A stretch of DNA of 28,048 nucleotides, from NCBI GenBank assembly GCA_900769965.1, contig CAAGIQ010000065.1:1-28048 (forward strand), given 5' to 3'. This stretch comes from Bacilli bacterium. Its GTDB lineage: Bacteria; Bacillota_I; Bacilli_A; RFN20; CAG-288. Both the position numbers and the translations under genes were made by a program. Under the pieces are notes generated by a model. It was not told the origin of the DNA. It did not search any database and saw only the letters and a list, made by a program, of their open reading frames with translations. This document shows positions 6,243-27,689 of the stretch, one piece after another (position 1 is the stretch's first letter; each line of letters starts with the position of its first letter).

Positions 6243-6447
6243 ATAAAAAAATCCTCTACTTGAGGACGAAATATTCGCGGTACCACCTCAATTCGTGAAG
6301 ATTCTTCACGCACTTATAACAAGTTTAACGTTTACCATAAACGGGTTTCCACCATGCTCCAAGACGACCATACCTAAGCTATCATATCTTTTCTCAGCTT
6401 CAAGACTCTCTGTGATGCTTCGCTTAGATAACCTTCTCTTCAACGCT
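6243..6447 (-). promoter_or_regulatory. T-box riboswitch (Val) upstream of valS
   Basis: T-box AATTGAGGTGGTACCGCG, stem I with GA/K-turn motif, AGAGA and GCTG distal motifs, Val codon GUC (6368-6366) at the specifier position, terminator TCCTC-AAGTA-GAGGA + T run. Confidence 0.92.
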
Positions 6448-6452
6448 CTTTT

Positions 6453-21237: not shown

Positions 21238-21314
21238 GGCCCTGTAGCTCAGCTGGATAGAGCAACAGCCTTCTAAGCTGTGGGCCGGGCGTTCGAGTCG
21301 CTCCAGGGTCACCA
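21238..21314 (+). tRNA. tRNA-Arg (anticodon UCU)
   Basis: 77-nt cloverleaf: acceptor GGCCCTG/CAGGGTC, D arm GCTC/GAGC, anticodon arm ACAGC-CTTCTAA-GCTGT, T arm GGGCG-TTCGAGT-CGCTC, encoded CCA. Confidence 0.97.
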
Positions 21315-21325
21315 TCTATTGCTTT

Positions 21326-21346
21326 CAGCCTTGAGGCTGTTTTTTT
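21326..21346 (+). terminator. Terminator of tRNA-Arg
   Basis: CAGCC-TTGA-GGCTG followed by a T run. Confidence 0.85.
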
Positions 21347-21616
21347 ATGTTTGTTTTAAGATTTATAACTTCAATATTTCTTTCAATAAACGTAAAAAAA
21401 GGATGTCAAATCGTAAATTTTTAACATCGTAAAATCTTTTCTAAACGCTCTTATTCCTTAAAAAACATTAAAAAAAGCTAACTTCAACTGAAAAAAATAG
21501 CTTTCTTTAAACATTATAAAGTATCATACAAGTCAAAAATTGTCTTCATTTATAAGTATTTTAGTGATTTTTTCAAAAAAATTGCTCTATTATCCCTTTT
21601 TTGTCGCATATCATTG

Positions 21617-21645
21617 TTGTTATAAGTTTTCATTTCTAGTAAACT
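21617..21645 (+). promoter_or_regulatory. Sigma-A-like promoter of the candidate sRNA
   Basis: TTGTTA-17 nt-TAAACT; predicted +1 near 21652, at the base of the first hairpin. Confidence 0.5.
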
Positions 21646-21651
21646 AATAAT

Positions 21652-21769
21652 ACTTAATTCTTCTGTAGTTAAGTCTATCATTGTCGATAGTATAGTCAAA
21701 TAAGATTCCCCCACTTATTCTTATTTGACCCCCACTAAAAGCCATTTGGATTATTCTAAATGGTTTTTT
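21652..21769 (+). ncRNA. Candidate structured small RNA (family not recognised)
   Basis: Four consecutive hairpins (21652-21674, 21675-21690, 21695-21729, terminator 21737-21769); G-U wobbles favour the + strand; CCCCCACT occurs twice; upstream promoter. Confidence 0.6.
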
Positions 21770-21820
21770 CTTTTCAGAAGTTTACAAAAAAATAAGTTAC
21801 AAAATCATAAAATATTAAAC

Positions 21821-21851
21821 AAAAAGCCTCTATATGTCTAATTACAGAGGC
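21821..21851 (-). terminator. Terminator of the mrp-CBS operon
   Basis: Minus strand GCCTCTGTA...TATAGAGGC followed by TTTTT, just after the stop. Confidence 0.8.
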
Positions 21852-21857
21852 CAAAAA

Positions 21858-22595
21858 CTAGATTTTGTTTTGGATTTTCCGCTTGTATAGAGGAATCTTA
21901 AGAAGATCCGATTCAGTTAGTACTCCTAGTACAAACTCGTCTTTCTTACCGTTTTCTGTAACGAAGATCAAAGATATTCTTTTATCTCCAATTCTCTTCT
22001 TACTGAAGTAGTTAAGTAAAGAATACGCTTTGACTTTTCGAGAAACGAAAAGAAAGTCTTCCGCCGTGTGAGAGGAGAAAATGATCTCTTCTCTAAGGTC
22101 ATTAATTGTATTATCGATAATACTAATATTCTTTTTCTTATAAAGATAATCGAAAAAGGTGGTTCTAGAGAAAACACCAATTACTTTTCCATTATCATAG
22201 ACTGGAACATTCGAATAACCTCTTTCGTTCATAAGCTTACAAACGGAAGTAATCTTATCATCTACTGAAGCGAAGGTTAAATCTTTTCTTAAAGTAGCTA
22301 TATCTAGGCAAGTTAAAGGGTTAACTATAGCGTCTACTATCTCTTCGAATTTTTCGTTAAAGGAAGAGGTTGGTATACAGACGTTATTTTCATGAGAAAG
22401 AATGTTTCTTAAATCTGAAGCCTGTTTTAAGATTTCGTAGTTATCTTCATCTGAAACTACATCGTTGATCTTGCGCTGATATACGTTACTTAAAGCGCGA
22501 GAAAAAGATATGAAGTCATCATTTAATGAAGATAACTTAACTAGTTCAGATTCTAACTTTTTAAAGTTAGATAAGAAACGATTTATTTCATCCAT
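21858..22595 (-). CDS. CBS-pair protein with N-terminal HEPN-like helical domain
   Basis: C-terminal CBS pair (LMNERGYSNVPVYDNGKVIGVFS...IFVTENGKKDEFVLGVLTESDL); N-terminal helical region with E15 and RNILSH (R-x4-H). Confidence 0.8.
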   Translation of the reverse strand: MDEINRFLSNFKKLESELVKLSSLNDDFISFSRALSNVYQRKINDVVSDEDNYEILKQASDLRNILSHENNVCIPTSSFNEKFEEIVDAIVNPLTCLDIATLRKDLTFASVDDKITSVCKLMNERGYSNVPVYDNGKVIGVFSRTTFFDYLYKKKNISIIDNTINDLREEIIFSSHTAEDFLFVSRKVKAYSLLNYFSKKRIGDKRISLIFVTENGKKDEFVLGVLTESDLLKIPLYKRKIQNKI

Positions 22596-22599
22596 AAAA

Positions 22600-23439
22600 C
22601 TACTTTACGCTATCTTTGAACTGTTCGATTCCAGTTACAATCGAATCTAGGTAGTCGACTTCAAGGTCTTCGATTTTACCTTGATCGACATGGTTAGTAA
22701 TAACTGGATCAAATGGAACAGAAGCGTAGGTTTGAATGTTATATTTTTTAGCAACTTCCGCTACTTTATCTTCTCCATAGATATAGATTTTTTCACTGCA
22801 AGTTGGGCATTTAACATAAGCCATATTGGAAACTAACCCTAAAGAAGGAACGTTCATCATATTTGCCATATTAACGCTCTTATCAACGATCAAGTTAACT
22901 AACGCTTGAGGAGTTGAAGCTATGACAATACCATCGATTTTGATTGATTGAAAAACGGTAAGAGGAACATCGCTAGTCCCTGGAGGCATATCGATAAGCA
23001 AGAAATCTAAGTCATCCCAGAAAACTTGGGAATAGAATTGGTCAACCATTTGACCGATCATTGGTCCACGCCAAATGATAGGATCGGTGTCATTATCTAA
23101 TAGCATGTTTGATGAGATGATTTGAATTCCATATTTTTTAGAATAAGCTGGAATAATATATCTATCTGTACCAAGAGCTTTCTCTTTGATACCGAAAGAA
23201 AACGGTATAGATGGACCGGTGATGTCCGCATCTAAAATACCAACTCTATATCCTTTTCTAGCAAGTAATACAGCTAGATAAGATGATACGAAAGATTTAC
23301 CAACTCCGCCCTTTCCTGACAAAACACCGATACAATGTTTTATAGAGGCGCCGCTCACTAGTGAAGATTTTTGAATCTTTGATTCACAACCTTCAGCTTT
23401 AGAGCAATTTTCACAATTATGATTACATGATTCTGACAT
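22600..23439 (-). CDS. mrp: Mrp/NBP35/ApbC Fe-S cluster carrier ATPase
   Basis: Cys-rich N-terminus CNHNCENC, SGKGGVGKS, DADITGPS, WRGP, DMPPGTSD and CPTC. Confidence 0.93.
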   Translation of the reverse strand: MSESCNHNCENCSKAEGCESKIQKSSLVSGASIKHCIGVLSGKGGVGKSFVSSYLAVLLARKGYRVGILDADITGPSIPFSFGIKEKALGTDRYIIPAYSKKYGIQIISSNMLLDNDTDPIIWRGPMIGQMVDQFYSQVFWDDLDFLLIDMPPGTSDVPLTVFQSIKIDGIVIASTPQALVNLIVDKSVNMANMMNVPSLGLVSNMAYVKCPTCSEKIYIYGEDKVAEVAKKYNIQTYASVPFDPVITNHVDQGKIEDLEVDYLDSIVTGIEQFKDSVK

Positions 23440-23457
23440 TTTTTTACTCTCTTTCTA

Positions 23458-23494
23458 CAAAATTAAAGGCACTTATTTCTAAGCACCTTTAATT
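23458..23494 (-). terminator. Terminator/hairpin after hydA
   Basis: Minus strand AATTAAAGGTGCTTA-GAAA-TAAGTGCCTTTAATT with G-U pairs and a GNRA loop. Confidence 0.7.
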
Positions 23495-23529
23495 ATACTA
23501 CATAAAGTTATTTATTCCTTAATTAATAC

Positions 23530-25269
23530 TTATCTTTTGCGAGAAGCGAAAGTAGTATGTAATAATTCGTGAGCTTTATGAGAGCCGAATTCTTCTAAAT
23601 ACTCATCGTAAAGTTTGATGATCGATTTATTTTCAGCAGAAATACGGCGTAATTTTCTTCTATCTTCGTTATACAAGGCTTGTTGTCTAGCTTTAACGAG
23701 AGTGTTAGATAATTTCTTTGGTTGAATCGGTTGACCACCACCGTTAACACAACCACCTGGACAAGCCATGATTTCGATAACATCGTAATGCTCTTCTCCG
23801 CTCTTGATCTGTTCAAGAACCTTTTGAGCGTTACCTAAACCTGAAGCGACGCAAGCTCTTAAGACTTTACCACCGATCTTGACTTCGCCAACTTTTATAC
23901 CTTCTAAGCCTCTAATTGCTTTGATTTCTAAATCTTCACACTTACCATCTAACCAGTATTTTGCGGTACGGATAGCAGCTTCCATAACACCACCGGAATT
24001 ACCGAAGATATCAGCACCTCCTGTAGATTCACCCATTGGATCATCGAATTTTTCAACTGGAAGATCATCGAAATTAATACCGGTTTCTTTGATCATTCTA
24101 GCGAATTCTCTAGTAGTTAAAACGTAATCGACATCCTTCAAACCGAAGTTCATGAGTTGTTCACGGTTCATCTCATCCTTTTTAGCAGTACATGGCATAA
24201 TAGACACGACTACGACATCTTTTGGATCATAGCCCATCATCTTAGCAAAGTATGATTTAGCGATAGCACCGAACATCTCATGAGGTGATTTACATGAAGA
24301 AGGAAGGTGTAATAGTTCTGGGAAACGTTTTTCAATAAGGTTTATCCAACCTGGACAACAAGAAGTGATAAGAGGTAAATTCTTACCTTCCTTAAGTCTT
24401 TCAACTAATTCATTAGCTTCTTCAACAATAGTTAAATCCGCTCCGAAGTTAGTATCGAAAACGTGTTCAAAACCCATTCTTCTCAACGCTGCTGGAATCT
24501 TTTCAGCAACAGAAGTTCCAATGTGATAGTGGAACTCTTCACCAAGTGCCGCTCTAACAGCTGGAGCAACCTGAACGACGACATGTTTAGATTTATCGCC
24601 GATTTCTCTCCATACATCGTTAACTACGCTCGACTGAGTGATAGCACCAGTTGGACAAACGTTAACGCATTGACCACAATAAGTACAATCTGTTTCATCT
24701 AAGCCTAAAGAGAAGGCTGGACCAACTTCGGTCTTAAAGCCTCTGTTAAATTGATGTAATACACCAATTCTTTGAACTTTGTTACAAACGGTAACACAAG
24801 CTCCACAAAGGATACACTTAGCTGGATTTCTTCTAATAGCATATCTATTTGAAGAATATTCATCTTTTTTAGACATTTCACCTTTATATGGGAGATCTGT
24901 GATACCCATTCTATAGGCGATGCTTTGAAGTTTACAATGCATGTTCTTGTCGCATGTTGGACAATCTTGTGGGTGGTCAGAAAGCATCAATTCGATGACA
25001 GTTCTTCTCGCCATAATAACTCTTTGGGAGTTAGTATAAACTTCCATTCCTTCAGTACAAAGAGTTGAACAAGAAGGAGCCAAATTTCTTCTTCCCTTGA
25101 TTTCAACTACGCAAACACGACATGAAGCGTTGTTATTCTTCTCGTTAGCAAGATGCATTGGAACATAACAAAGAGTTGGAATGTCGATGTTTAATTGTCT
25201 ACAGGCTTGGAGTACAGTTAACCCTTCTTCTACTTGAAGAGGTACATCATTAATCTTAATATTTACCAT
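23530..25269 (-). CDS. hydA: Group A [FeFe]-hydrogenase catalytic subunit (HydA/HndD type)
   Basis: H-cluster motifs TSCCPGW, MPCTAKKDE and EIMACPGGCVNGGG; N-terminal 2Fe-2S, His-ligated 4Fe-4S (HPQDCPTC...C) and two 4Fe-4S motifs. Confidence 0.96.
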   Translation of the reverse strand: MVNIKINDVPLQVEEGLTVLQACRQLNIDIPTLCYVPMHLANEKNNNASCRVCVVEIKGRRNLAPSCSTLCTEGMEVYTNSQRVIMARRTVIELMLSDHPQDCPTCDKNMHCKLQSIAYRMGITDLPYKGEMSKKDEYSSNRYAIRRNPAKCILCGACVTVCNKVQRIGVLHQFNRGFKTEVGPAFSLGLDETDCTYCGQCVNVCPTGAITQSSVVNDVWREIGDKSKHVVVQVAPAVRAALGEEFHYHIGTSVAEKIPAALRRMGFEHVFDTNFGADLTIVEEANELVERLKEGKNLPLITSCCPGWINLIEKRFPELLHLPSSCKSPHEMFGAIAKSYFAKMMGYDPKDVVVVSIMPCTAKKDEMNREQLMNFGLKDVDYVLTTREFARMIKETGINFDDLPVEKFDDPMGESTGGADIFGNSGGVMEAAIRTAKYWLDGKCEDLEIKAIRGLEGIKVGEVKIGGKVLRACVASGLGNAQKVLEQIKSGEEHYDVIEIMACPGGCVNGGGQPIQPKKLSNTLVKARQQALYNEDRRKLRRISAENKSIIKLYDEYLEEFGSHKAHELLHTTFASRKR

Positions 25270-25281
25270 AATCTATATCTC

Positions 25282-27192
25282 CTAAAGTGTAATAGCTCTG
25301 ATTGGGCAGTTAGTATCACAAGTTCCGCATCTTATACACTTAAATTCATCGATTTGATAGACAAATAATTTTGGATTTCGTGTTGCATGTCTCTCAGTCT
25401 TGAAGATAGCTTCAACTGGACACTTACGGAAACAGTTACCACAACCGACACACTTATCTTCGTTGATGACGTATCTAGCAAGAGCTCGACAAGCTTTAGC
25501 TGGACATAACTTATGAACTACGTGCATCATGTATTCATCTTTGAAGTAACGTAAAGTGGAAAGAACTGGGTTTGGAGAAGATTGACCTAAACCACATAAA
25601 GCGGTGTCTTTAATGACTAAAGATAGTCTTTCGAGTTGATCGACATCTTCAACAGTACCTTCACCGTTACAAATTCTTTCGAGAATTTCATATAGTCTCT
25701 TATTACCGATACGGCATGGAGTACATTTACCACATGATTCTTCAACGGTGAAACCTAAATAGAACTTAGCGATGTCAACCATACAGTTATCTTCATCCAT
25801 GACGATAAGACCACCAGAACCCATCATCGAACCTATGGCCATAAGGTTATCGTAATCGATTGGAGTATCAATTAAGCTAAATGGGATACAACCACCTGAT
25901 GGACCACCGGTTTGAGCAGCTTTGAACTTCTTATCGTTCTTGATGCCACCACCGATTTCATAGATGATTTCTCTTAATGTTGTACCCATTGGTACTTCAA
26001 CTAAGCCGACGTTGTTGATCTTACCAGCAAGAGCAAAAACTTTTGTTCCCTTACTCTTTTCGGTACCTAAAGAAGCGAAGTTTTCAGCTCCTTCAGTAAA
26101 GATATATGGAACGTTAGCGTAGGTTTCTACGTTGTTAACAATAGTTGGTTTTTCAAATAAACCGGATTGAGCTGGGAATGGAGGTTTAACAACTGGTTCA
26201 CCTCTTTCACCTTCGATAGATTTGATTAAAGCAGTTTCTTCACCGCAAACGAAGGCACCAGCACCATATTTAATAGAGATATCAAATGAGAAATCTGAAC
26301 CCATGATATTTTTGCCCAAAAGACCTAACAATCTAGCTTCATTGATAGCGATTTGAAGTCTTTCAACAGCCAAAGGATATTCAGCACGAATATAGACAAC
26401 ACCTTCATCCGCTCCGATAGTATGTCCTGCTATAGTCATAGCTTCAACAACACTAAATGGATCTCCTTCCAAAATAGAACGATCCATAAAGGCACCTGGG
26501 TCACCTTCATCAGCGTTACAGATGACGTATTTCTTTTCACCTTTATTCTTACGGCAAATATCCCACTTTAAGTAGGTTGGGAAGCCACCGCCACCTCTAC
26601 CTCTTAAACCTGATACCTTCATGATATCGATGGTTTCTTCAGGAGTTAAATCGAAGATAACCTTCTCTAAAGCTTTATAACCATCGTTAGAGATATATTC
26701 TTTAATGTTTTCTGGATCGATTAAACCACAGTTACGTAAGGCAATACGTTTCTGTTTTTTGTAGAATGGAATTTCGTCTTGAACAGCGATGCGTTTTCCA
26801 TCGATTGGATTAACGTAAAGAAGATCTTCGACATATTTATGTCCGATGATATCTTCTTCGATAATTCTCTTAGCATCTTGAGGTTTTACTTGAACGTAGA
26901 AAGTGTGGTCTGGGAAGATTTTAACGATTGGTCCTTTTTCGCAGAAGCCGAAACAACCGGAAATGTGGACTTCAACCTTATCTTCAAGGCCATGAGCCTT
27001 AACTTCATTAACTAATTCATCGTAGATGGATTGAGATTCTGAAGCTCGACAACCAGTAGAGGAACAAACGCCAATGATGTACTTATCATGTACTTCGGAT
27101 TTGACACCTCTTTTAATATCTAACAAACCGTGAAGCTTATTAGAAAGTTCAACAAACTCTTCTCTATTGTTAATTCTTGTTAAACATGACAT
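25282..27192 (-). CDS. hydB: NuoF-like diaphorase subunit of the [FeFe]-hydrogenase (HydB/HndC)
   Basis: N-terminal thioredoxin-like 2Fe-2S, GRGGGGFP, NADEGDPGAFMDR, GAFVCGEETAL, GGPSGG, ESCGKCTPCR and two C-terminal 4Fe-4S motifs. Confidence 0.94.
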   Translation of the reverse strand: MSCLTRINNREEFVELSNKLHGLLDIKRGVKSEVHDKYIIGVCSSTGCRASESQSIYDELVNEVKAHGLEDKVEVHISGCFGFCEKGPIVKIFPDHTFYVQVKPQDAKRIIEEDIIGHKYVEDLLYVNPIDGKRIAVQDEIPFYKKQKRIALRNCGLIDPENIKEYISNDGYKALEKVIFDLTPEETIDIMKVSGLRGRGGGGFPTYLKWDICRKNKGEKKYVICNADEGDPGAFMDRSILEGDPFSVVEAMTIAGHTIGADEGVVYIRAEYPLAVERLQIAINEARLLGLLGKNIMGSDFSFDISIKYGAGAFVCGEETALIKSIEGERGEPVVKPPFPAQSGLFEKPTIVNNVETYANVPYIFTEGAENFASLGTEKSKGTKVFALAGKINNVGLVEVPMGTTLREIIYEIGGGIKNDKKFKAAQTGGPSGGCIPFSLIDTPIDYDNLMAIGSMMGSGGLIVMDEDNCMVDIAKFYLGFTVEESCGKCTPCRIGNKRLYEILERICNGEGTVEDVDQLERLSLVIKDTALCGLGQSSPNPVLSTLRYFKDEYMMHVVHKLCPAKACRALARYVINEDKCVGCGNCFRKCPVEAIFKTERHATRNPKLFVYQIDEFKCIRCGTCDTNCPIRAITL

Positions 27193-27206
27193 AAGAAATA
27201 TTCTCC

Positions 27207-27689
27207 TTACTTATATTCTTCAAGGATTTGCTTAACTGTTTCAATAGTAGCATTTCCGTAAGTTTTTCCATTAACTTGGATAACTGGTGCTAATCCGCAA
27301 GCACCGACGCAACGTAAGGATGAGAGAGTGTATAAACCATCCTCGGTAGTTTGACCGCATTTGATCTTTAATTTTGCTTCGAATTCATCAACGATCTTTT
27401 GACTACCTCTAACAAAGCAAGCTGTACCTAAACAGATGTTAATCGTGTATTTACCTTGTCTCTCTGTTTTAAAGAAAGAATAGAAAGTAACAACACCAAA
27501 GACTTTAGATGCAGGTATGCTAAGTTTTTCAGCAACGAATTCTTGAACCTCCCTTGGAAGGTAACCAAAAATATGCTGAGCACGATGAAGAATTGCAATC
27601 AATTCGTGGGAGTTATAATTGTGCTCCTTCATGAAAGCATCGAGTTCATCGAATTTAGCTTTTGTAGCTTCATCAATTGTATTATTCAT
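27207..27689 (-). CDS. hydC: NuoE-like 2Fe-2S subunit of the [FeFe]-hydrogenase (HydC/HndA)
   Basis: VVTFYSFF, CLGTAC and CVGACGLAP motifs. Confidence 0.94.
   Translation of the reverse strand: MNNTIDEATKAKFDELDAFMKEHNYNSHELIAILHRAQHIFGYLPREVQEFVAEKLSIPASKVFGVVTFYSFFKTERQGKYTINICLGTACFVRGSQKIVDEFEAKLKIKCGQTTEDGLYTLSSLRCVGACGLAPVIQVNGKTYGNATIETVKQILEEYK

Follow-up and report, generated by a model that had tools for sequence, protein, structure and literature searches.

Does the gap between a tRNA gene and the protein-coding gene that faces it hold an independent small RNA gene and, if it does, what kind of RNA would that gene make? We asked this of a 28,048-nt window, contig C65 of an 87%-complete source genome (1.33 Mb, 34% GC), in which an initial annotation had described a four-hairpin RNA with a duplicated C-rich seed. 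Our computational predictions support well a candidate plus-strand non-coding RNA gene at this locus that would be independent, structured and outside any Rfam family.

Locus, predicted promoter and fold

The candidate small RNA (sRNA) unit lies within a 543-546-nt gap that runs from tRNA-Arg(UCU) (21238-21314, + strand; detected by ARAGORN and by the Rfam tRNA model at 64.7 bits) to the convergent gene of a CBS-domain protein (21858-22595, - strand). Each neighbor has its own terminator-like hairpin: that of the tRNA gene (21326-21349, + strand; stem 21326-21339, then a T run) would part the tRNA from the sRNA unit, and the terminator of the CBS gene occupies 21825-21852 on the - strand. Since the downstream gene is convergent, a leader or attenuator was rejected. 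The CBS gene comes after a NUBPL/Mrp-type ATPase gene, which in turn follows a three-subunit [FeFe]-hydrogenase-like cluster (2Fe-2S thioredoxin, Complex1_51K and Fe-only hydrogenase; 21858-27689, - strand).

At the 5' end of the unit, the initial annotation had placed a promoter, TTGTTA-17-TAAACT (21617-21645, + strand; TTGTTA at 21617 and TAAACT at 21640). A model fitted to 360 upstream regions from the same genome, with the element's own region left out, ranks this site best on the + strand, whereas a generic sigma-70 scan omits it (7/12). Its score of 11.1 bits is above that of 88% of real upstream regions and is reached by <0.5% of shuffles, and the transcription start that the model expects is the first base of hairpin 1. 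We also identified two - strand signals missing from the initial annotation: a facing promoter-like site, TTGACT-16-TAGACT with a TG element (21699-21672; 10.1 bits, 1% of shuffles), and a terminator-like hairpin that no ORF feeds (21510-21468; -13.4 kcal/mol, z -3.6, compared with -7.0 kcal/mol on the + strand), which may be an insulator or the end of an antisense transcript. Together they could bound an unstructured antisense RNA of ~195 nt across the sRNA promoter; the body of such an RNA has a fold z-score of +1.3. Strain variants, described below, indicate a spacing of 15 nt in 14 of the 16 that are informative, and because the 16-nt spacing is not kept in most of them, the facing site is probably incidental.

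The RNA predicted from the fold, the structure ranking and the promoter model is ~120-124 nt long (21652-21775, + strand), with its start placed 6-7 nt past the -10 box and its end at the U tail. All the motif positions claimed for it were reproduced on the sequence, and the segment 21651-21775 folds into exactly the four back-to-back hairpins that had been proposed, with identical minimum free energy and centroid structures. Hairpin 1 (21652-21674) has nine pairs, one of them G-U, and a bulged U21666, with arms ACTTAATT at 21652 and AGTTAAGT at 21667. Hairpin 2 (21675-21690) has five pairs around a 6-nt loop (CTATC at 21675, GATAG at 21686), and hairpin 3 (21695-21729) has a perfect 11-bp stem (GTCAAATAAGA at 21695, TCTTATTTGAC at 21719) and a 13-nt loop. 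The intrinsic terminator (21737-21775; arms at 21737 and 21755) has 14 pairs when G-T is allowed, two of them G-U, a UUAU loop and a U tail. All three imperfect stem positions are thus G-U on the + strand, in agreement with the initial annotation. Amid the two convergent terminators, at 21781-21805, a direct repeat, TTACAAAA, occurs twice, 15 nt apart.

Both copies of the proposed seed are present and would be exposed in the predicted fold, with UCCCCC open in loop 3 and CCCC open in the linker. Seed 1, CCCCCACU within the loop UUCCCCCACUUAU (21708-21715), is fully accessible, with a predicted opening energy of 0.04 kcal/mol. Seed 2, (C)CCCCACU in the linker ahead of the terminator (21729-21736; 0.05 kcal/mol), is not wholly unpaired as had been assumed: its first C, C21729, closes stem 3, so that seven bases are free. 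The duplication is as striking as had been claimed. The 8-mer CCCCCACT, at 21708 and 21729, occurs five times in 1.33 Mb on both strands, two of them in the element, and across the 310 intergenic regions, which total 88,002 nt, no other 8-mer with at least six G+C recurs within 30 nt.

The segment 21651-21775 has a predicted folding energy of -35.1 kcal/mol (z -7.63), which none of 200 shuffles equals, and the - strand gives a z-score of -3.72. When the terminator is left off, the body keeps a z-score of -5.6 on the + strand and -2.8 on the - strand, with close energies (-19.9 and -18.4 kcal/mol). The 86-nt body ranks first among the 178 windows upstream of intergenic terminators genome-wide, and stem 3 is one of seven perfect inverted repeats of such length without an A/T tract in intergenic DNA. 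No + strand ORF of at least 60 aa lies upstream of the terminator. From these features we infer that the element is very probably transcribed, and transcribed as a structured RNA that would fold in vivo much as predicted.

Strain variants and distribution among relatives

To compare strains, we used as a proxy a spurious - strand ORF across the element that gene callers report in other assemblies. A search with this ORF found 38 sequences in six clusters; our counts rest on 24 of the 38 (23 plus the source genome; ~95 contigs). The variant sequences come without genomic context and are assumed to represent the same locus in near strains, and changes on the + strand were deduced from conceptual translations by parsimony, with synonymous positions invisible and the terminator hardly covered. 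A profile search with all cluster representatives reached nothing more distant.

Five substitutions were inferred, and they fall at the bulge, a G-U wobble, a loop base and a terminal pair, sparing every inner pair and every unpaired seed base. In hairpin 1, the bulged U21666 is changed in eight sequences, and G21668 in one, where G-U becomes A-U. A21680 in loop 2 is changed in two sequences. The remaining substitutions, at G21695 and C21729, affect both bases of the outer pair of stem 3; this pair is lost in most strains, and the 10-bp core is unchanged where visible. Indels occur in the spacer at 21691-21694 (14 variants), at the foot of stem 3, and in the C-run of the loop in one variant, which has six C instead of five. 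The chance of sparing both inner pairs and seeds is 0.016-0.03 among these related strains, and that of sparing inner pairs alone is 0.11-0.18; these statistics are weak because synonymous positions are invisible and the variants are related strains. No two-sided compensatory change was seen among the variants examined (24 of 38). In the promoter, one variant has a -35 box TTGTCA and another a -10 box TAAAAT, both nearer consensus and with the 17-nt spacing kept, and the DNA upstream varies at at least six sites.

The same variants bear on what the - strand might encode. If the element were the antitoxin or antisense partner of a small - strand gene, in a type I toxin-antitoxin pair or a pair of face-to-face promoters, the 10.1-bit promoter-like site, the - strand hairpin and the overlapping - strand ORFs of 33-54 aa would all have a place. 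However, 6 of 24 variants share one early stop codon in the antisense ORF and most show a shifted frame where it crosses the element; its substitutions are radical, its hydropathy maximum is <1.0, it has no Pfam match and no relatives beyond the strains, and the promoter spacing and unstructured body noted above give this arrangement no help. We therefore regard it as very improbable. A peptide is unlikely because the antisense ORF is broken in many strains, and with no conserved ORF present we rejected protein coding on either strand.

We then looked for the element in related genomes. CBS homologues occur in 32 of 36 family genomes, and at 14 of 29 relatives' CBS loci tRNA-Arg(UCU) is convergent and directly downstream. 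The motif CCCCAC is present in the tRNA-Arg/CBS gap of none of these 14 relatives with the same neighborhood. Their gap measures 6-221 nt in 12 of the 14, including the lone congeneric genome (69 nt); in the two others it measures 522 and 633 nt. Each of these two longer gaps holds a small gene (L036:2250-2750 and L050:2250-2840) that, by its motifs, we take to be desulfoferrodoxin-like. A homologue of this gene lies on contig C143 of the source genome; no host-ORF remnant was found in the region, and we rejected a decayed copy of the gene as the source of the element.

Broader searches were also negative. Blastn against 60 relatives gave only short AT-rich matches. A covariance model built from the single sequence returned five weak matches in 149 relatives, all to terminators or coding strands, one match in 149 genomes of the class, to a terminator only, and no homologue at the 29 CBS loci; a model of this kind has low sensitivity and scoring covered 23 candidates per genome, so diverged homologues may have escaped it. 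Motif patterns found no homologue in 66 family genomes, where the loci of 30 matches were checked, or in about 400 genomes of the order. In the lone congeneric genome, 19 of 20 motif sites lie inside ORFs and the remaining one is dissimilar. GTDB contigs yielded 0 homologues, plasmids and phages none, and viral contigs chance matches only; in a metagenome scan, none of the at least 120 matches listed, mostly low-complexity, has the element's layout. Given the swamped metagenome matches and a model made from one sequence, we describe homologues as not found rather than absent.

Within the source genome the element is single-copy; a candidate paralogue on contig C176 proved to be the end of a ribosomal-protein-like ORF. 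Overall, the check for homologues and covariation proposed with the initial annotation found no homologue beyond the species and no compensatory change among its strains, and without sequences from other species covariation could not be shown. The simplest reading of this distribution would be a recent gain at the 3' end of tRNA-Arg, the alternative being loss in all relatives.

Known RNA families and partner proteins

The view that the RNA belongs to no assignable family held up against Rfam 15: no model reaches its gathering threshold on the element, and the only Rfam matches in the window, a tRNA and a T-box, lie away from it. The T-box leader (102 bits; 6259-6452, - strand) precedes valS, and elsewhere in the genome a tmRNA gene (C219:2527-2920) encodes the tag GNKTIFNNAPAFAAAAC, whose last residue is Cys. 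The best score on the element is that of Qrr (RF00378), 24.4 bits against a gathering threshold of 50. Qrr resembles the element in its four-hairpin outline and a similar terminator, but the alignment is carried by the terminator and bypasses the C-rich part. We also rejected 6S RNA: the element forms four separate hairpins rather than a long rod with a central bubble, and RF00013 was not found in the 87%-complete genome, with a positive control.

The closest parallels in architecture are sRNAs with C-rich seeds. RoxS carries a duplicated 10-nt C-rich sequence, CCCCUUUGUU, in single-stranded regions (PMC4409812), and RsaE a duplicated UCCCC motif, also in single-stranded regions (PMC9217828). 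The RsaE/RoxS RNAs of Staphylococcus and Bacillus share with the element a length of ~110-120 nt, an own terminator and a duplicated C-rich stretch; they differ in that the element's motif is CCCCCACU, and in that RsaE is kept across genera whereas the element is seen in one species only. The RsaE/RoxS model RF01820 has 0 matches in the source genome, its control being positive in B. subtilis. LhrC has a C-rich motif in a hairpin loop and in a single-stranded stretch ahead of the terminator, and works without need for Hfq (PMC4132741). LhrC1-5 of Listeria monocytogenes are therefore like the element in placing the motif in a loop and in the pre-terminator linker; unlike them, the element is single-copy, has two extra 5' hairpins and has no third motif in its terminator loop (UUAU). 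FsrA and CsfG of Bacillus subtilis likewise have C-rich regions in predicted single-stranded parts, as reported in PMC4409812, and that much they have in common with the element. It has no Rfam match to LhrC1-5, FsrA or CsfG.

The feature that marks C-rich-seed sRNAs, UCCC-type motifs that are unpaired more than once, is present in the predicted fold. By sequence, then, the element is an orphan of a known kind, with no recognizable relative and no assigned Rfam family. Among the literature surveyed, which covers the subject thinly, we found no account of small RNAs of such a lineage.

Turning to possible protein partners, searches of the 87%-complete genome, in which positive controls worked, found neither Hfq nor CsrA; a separate LSM protein search carries little weight, as its control gave no match in bacteria. 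With CsrA not found and no GGA loop in the fold, a CsrB-type protein-titrating RNA was rejected. The hexaloop of hairpin 2 is of an ANTAR-like A1/G4 type. A genome search for ANTAR carries little weight, as its own control gave no match anywhere.

Pairing partners and competing explanations

What would such an RNA do? The reading that we favor, though by a modest measure of confidence only slightly better than even, is a trans-acting sRNA of the RsaE/LhrC kind with a small G-rich regulon. The unit would produce a ~120-nt RNA from its own promoter-like site to its own terminator, and its two CCCCACU motifs, single-stranded in the predicted fold, would act in trans by pairing with G-run stretches of mRNAs. 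Its main partners would be a few G-rich ribosome-binding sites, with translation damped independently of Hfq. The stable stems would serve as a scaffold that keeps both seeds open, so that pairing could nucleate at either one, redundantly or depending on the target, as is the case for LhrC and RsaE/RoxS.

The ribosome-binding sites of the genome narrow this model. Their motif is the canonical AGGAGG, and with start codons taken from a simple in-house caller, AGGAG precedes 317 of 1074 starts, GGGGG 10 of 1074 and GTGGG 1 of 1074. The seed cannot pair cleanly with an AGGAGG Shine-Dalgarno sequence, and AGGAG is far commoner than GGGGG or GTGGG, which led us to reject an anti-Shine-Dalgarno mimic. 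The analogy drawn by the initial annotation with RNAs that pair with G-rich ribosome-binding sites therefore stands for the architecture, which fits LhrC and RoxS/RsaE, but not for general complementarity to the Shine-Dalgarno sequence of this genome. GGGG lies within 20 nt of the start in about 29 of 1074 genes. Genes with G-rich ribosome-binding sites form a mixed set, perhaps with some lean to carbon uptake, that includes rpsL, rplD, obg, tsaD, radC, an aldolase (fba), a glutamate dehydrogenase (gdh), a transposase, a PTS-EAL protein, a sugar-binding protein and a pair of adjacent ABC permeases; two further candidate target ORFs, L327 and L328, were left out of it. At C28:2315-4393 (L352) the genome encodes a fusion of a PTS EIIC domain with an EAL domain.

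The target prediction suggested for the RNA did not single out a partner. The best start-region target reaches -13.9 kcal/mol, compared with -13.7 to -15.9 for six shuffled loops. Genome-wide, the best non-self partners reach -18.8 and -17.7 kcal/mol, no better than 12 shuffled loops (-17.3 to -21.9). Because no start-region target beats shuffled loops and the seed is not an anti-Shine-Dalgarno sequence, we name no target. Thus, of the trans-acting or titrating RNA first proposed, the structured RNA gene is supported, but no target rises above shuffled sequences; that the seeds act by pairing, and on which mRNAs, we infer.

Few good mRNA partners in the genome and a rigid scaffold that displays the same motif twice would also suit a real sRNA that acts as a decoy, either titrating a protein that binds C-rich RNA or sponging a G-rich RNA. 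A precedent for the latter is the pairing of RsaE with RsaI, which employs the same C/G motifs (PMC9217828). Against a decoy, a candidate protein is missing, with CsrA and Hfq not found and no GGA loops in the fold, and the ANTAR-like hexaloop of hairpin 2 is single and altered in two variants. We consider a decoy distinctly unlikely.

A different concern is that the motif also occurs in mobile and repeated DNA. The IS605 right-end hairpin, ISL3 ends and repeats upstream of DUF4143 genes all contain CCCCACT(T/A), often twice, and in IS605 elements that circulate in the order CCCCCACU supplies one arm of the hairpin at the end. In those elements the motif is paired inside a palindrome or belongs to repeats of 24-31 bp that adjoin a transposase or ATPase gene; in our element, by contrast, it is unpaired, its flanks are unrelated and no transposase or ATPase gene is near. 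An insertion-sequence end of the ISL3 or IS200/IS605 type was rejected on the grounds that the window holds no transposase, the genome's own ends differ and the element is single-copy.

The source genome carries several such repeats. An IS605-type element with Y1 tnpA and tnpB occupies C128:1-1340 (L332); its right end, present in 8 of 201 order genomes with differing flanks and in several with multiple copies, was likely mobile recently. Short MITE-like repeats with the genome's own ISL3 end sequence lie at contig ends C106, C141 and C15 and at C71:5340-6790. There are 13 DUF4143 loci (L268-L280). Across these and loci L221, L222, L229 and L236, many AAA_14/DUF4143 ATPase genes have about three gene-specific 21-25-bp tandem repeats upstream that overlap the promoter, and at L221 and L236 repeats of this type persist without a whole gene. 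TGTCAA repeats were considered as IS21 ends, an assignment we rejected, as two of the four sit upstream of DUF4143 ATPases.

These repeats lend some substance to the possibility that the locus encodes no functional RNA and consists of two insulating terminators and a relic at the DNA level, for example the remains of an insertion-sequence end, or of the repeats and promoter of an AAA_14/DUF4143 ATPase gene since lost. In 401 genomes of the order, the remaining doubled CCCCACT sites between genes are ISL3 ends or DUF4143 repeats (two ISL3 ends were confirmed by Pfam, and two loci as 24-25-bp tandem repeats before DUF4143 ATPases). Moreover, the element is lineage-restricted and sits at a tRNA 3' end, and some of these sites are like the element in part, TGTCAATAAAAATCCCCCACTT at L221 to its GTCAAATAAGATTCCCCCACTT and CCCCACTAAAGTTTAGAGCC at L220 to its CCCCACTAAAAGCC. 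None of the ISL3 or DUF4143 loci, however, has the hairpin-loop-linker-terminator layout, the ISL3 ends and DUF4143 repeats of this genome itself are unlike the element, its two copies have only 8 nt in common rather than a 24-nt unit, and the region lacks a host-ORF remnant. The first-ranked structure among 178, a promoter in register with stem 1 and structure-neutral mutations would all be unexpected in a relic, which we judge to be unlikely.

The same IS605 element raises a more speculative use for the RNA as a host sRNA against mobile-element RNAs, whose loop would strand-invade the 3' hairpin in the omega (guide) RNA of the IS605 TnpB and mask G-rich transposase ribosome-binding sites. 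All 13 bases of the loop find a partner in the 3' arm of the C128 tnpA-tnpB right-end hairpin, in a duplex with a single bulge. At -17.7 kcal/mol this is the strongest non-self duplex on a strand that is presumably transcribed, the same right end recurs in 8 of 201 order genomes, and the top start-region match is an HTH_Tnp_1 transposase. Yet the duplex is no better than the best matches of shuffled loops, its site is buried (net -4.9 kcal/mol), the lead was noticed post hoc, and our searches detected no trace of the RNA in the seven other genomes that carry this right end. In the literature surveyed, whose coverage is thin, no host RNA against a TnpB guide is described. We see very little chance that the RNA invades the omega RNA in this way, and equally little that it is a recently gained inhibitor of an OMEGA nuclease, possibly a domesticated IS end, that polices insertion sequences.

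Returning to the C-rich-seed sRNA that we favor, if it is real, small-genome, uncultured Bacilli-like bacteria would use this type of riboregulation in a genome where Hfq, CsrA and RsaE were not found. Its importance would be greater only if its targets were mobile-element RNAs. It would also mean that such an RNA can arise in a single species at the 3' end of a tRNA gene, and as many strains of that species have been sampled (the CBS protein cluster has 162 members), the locus would offer a tractable case of sRNA birth.
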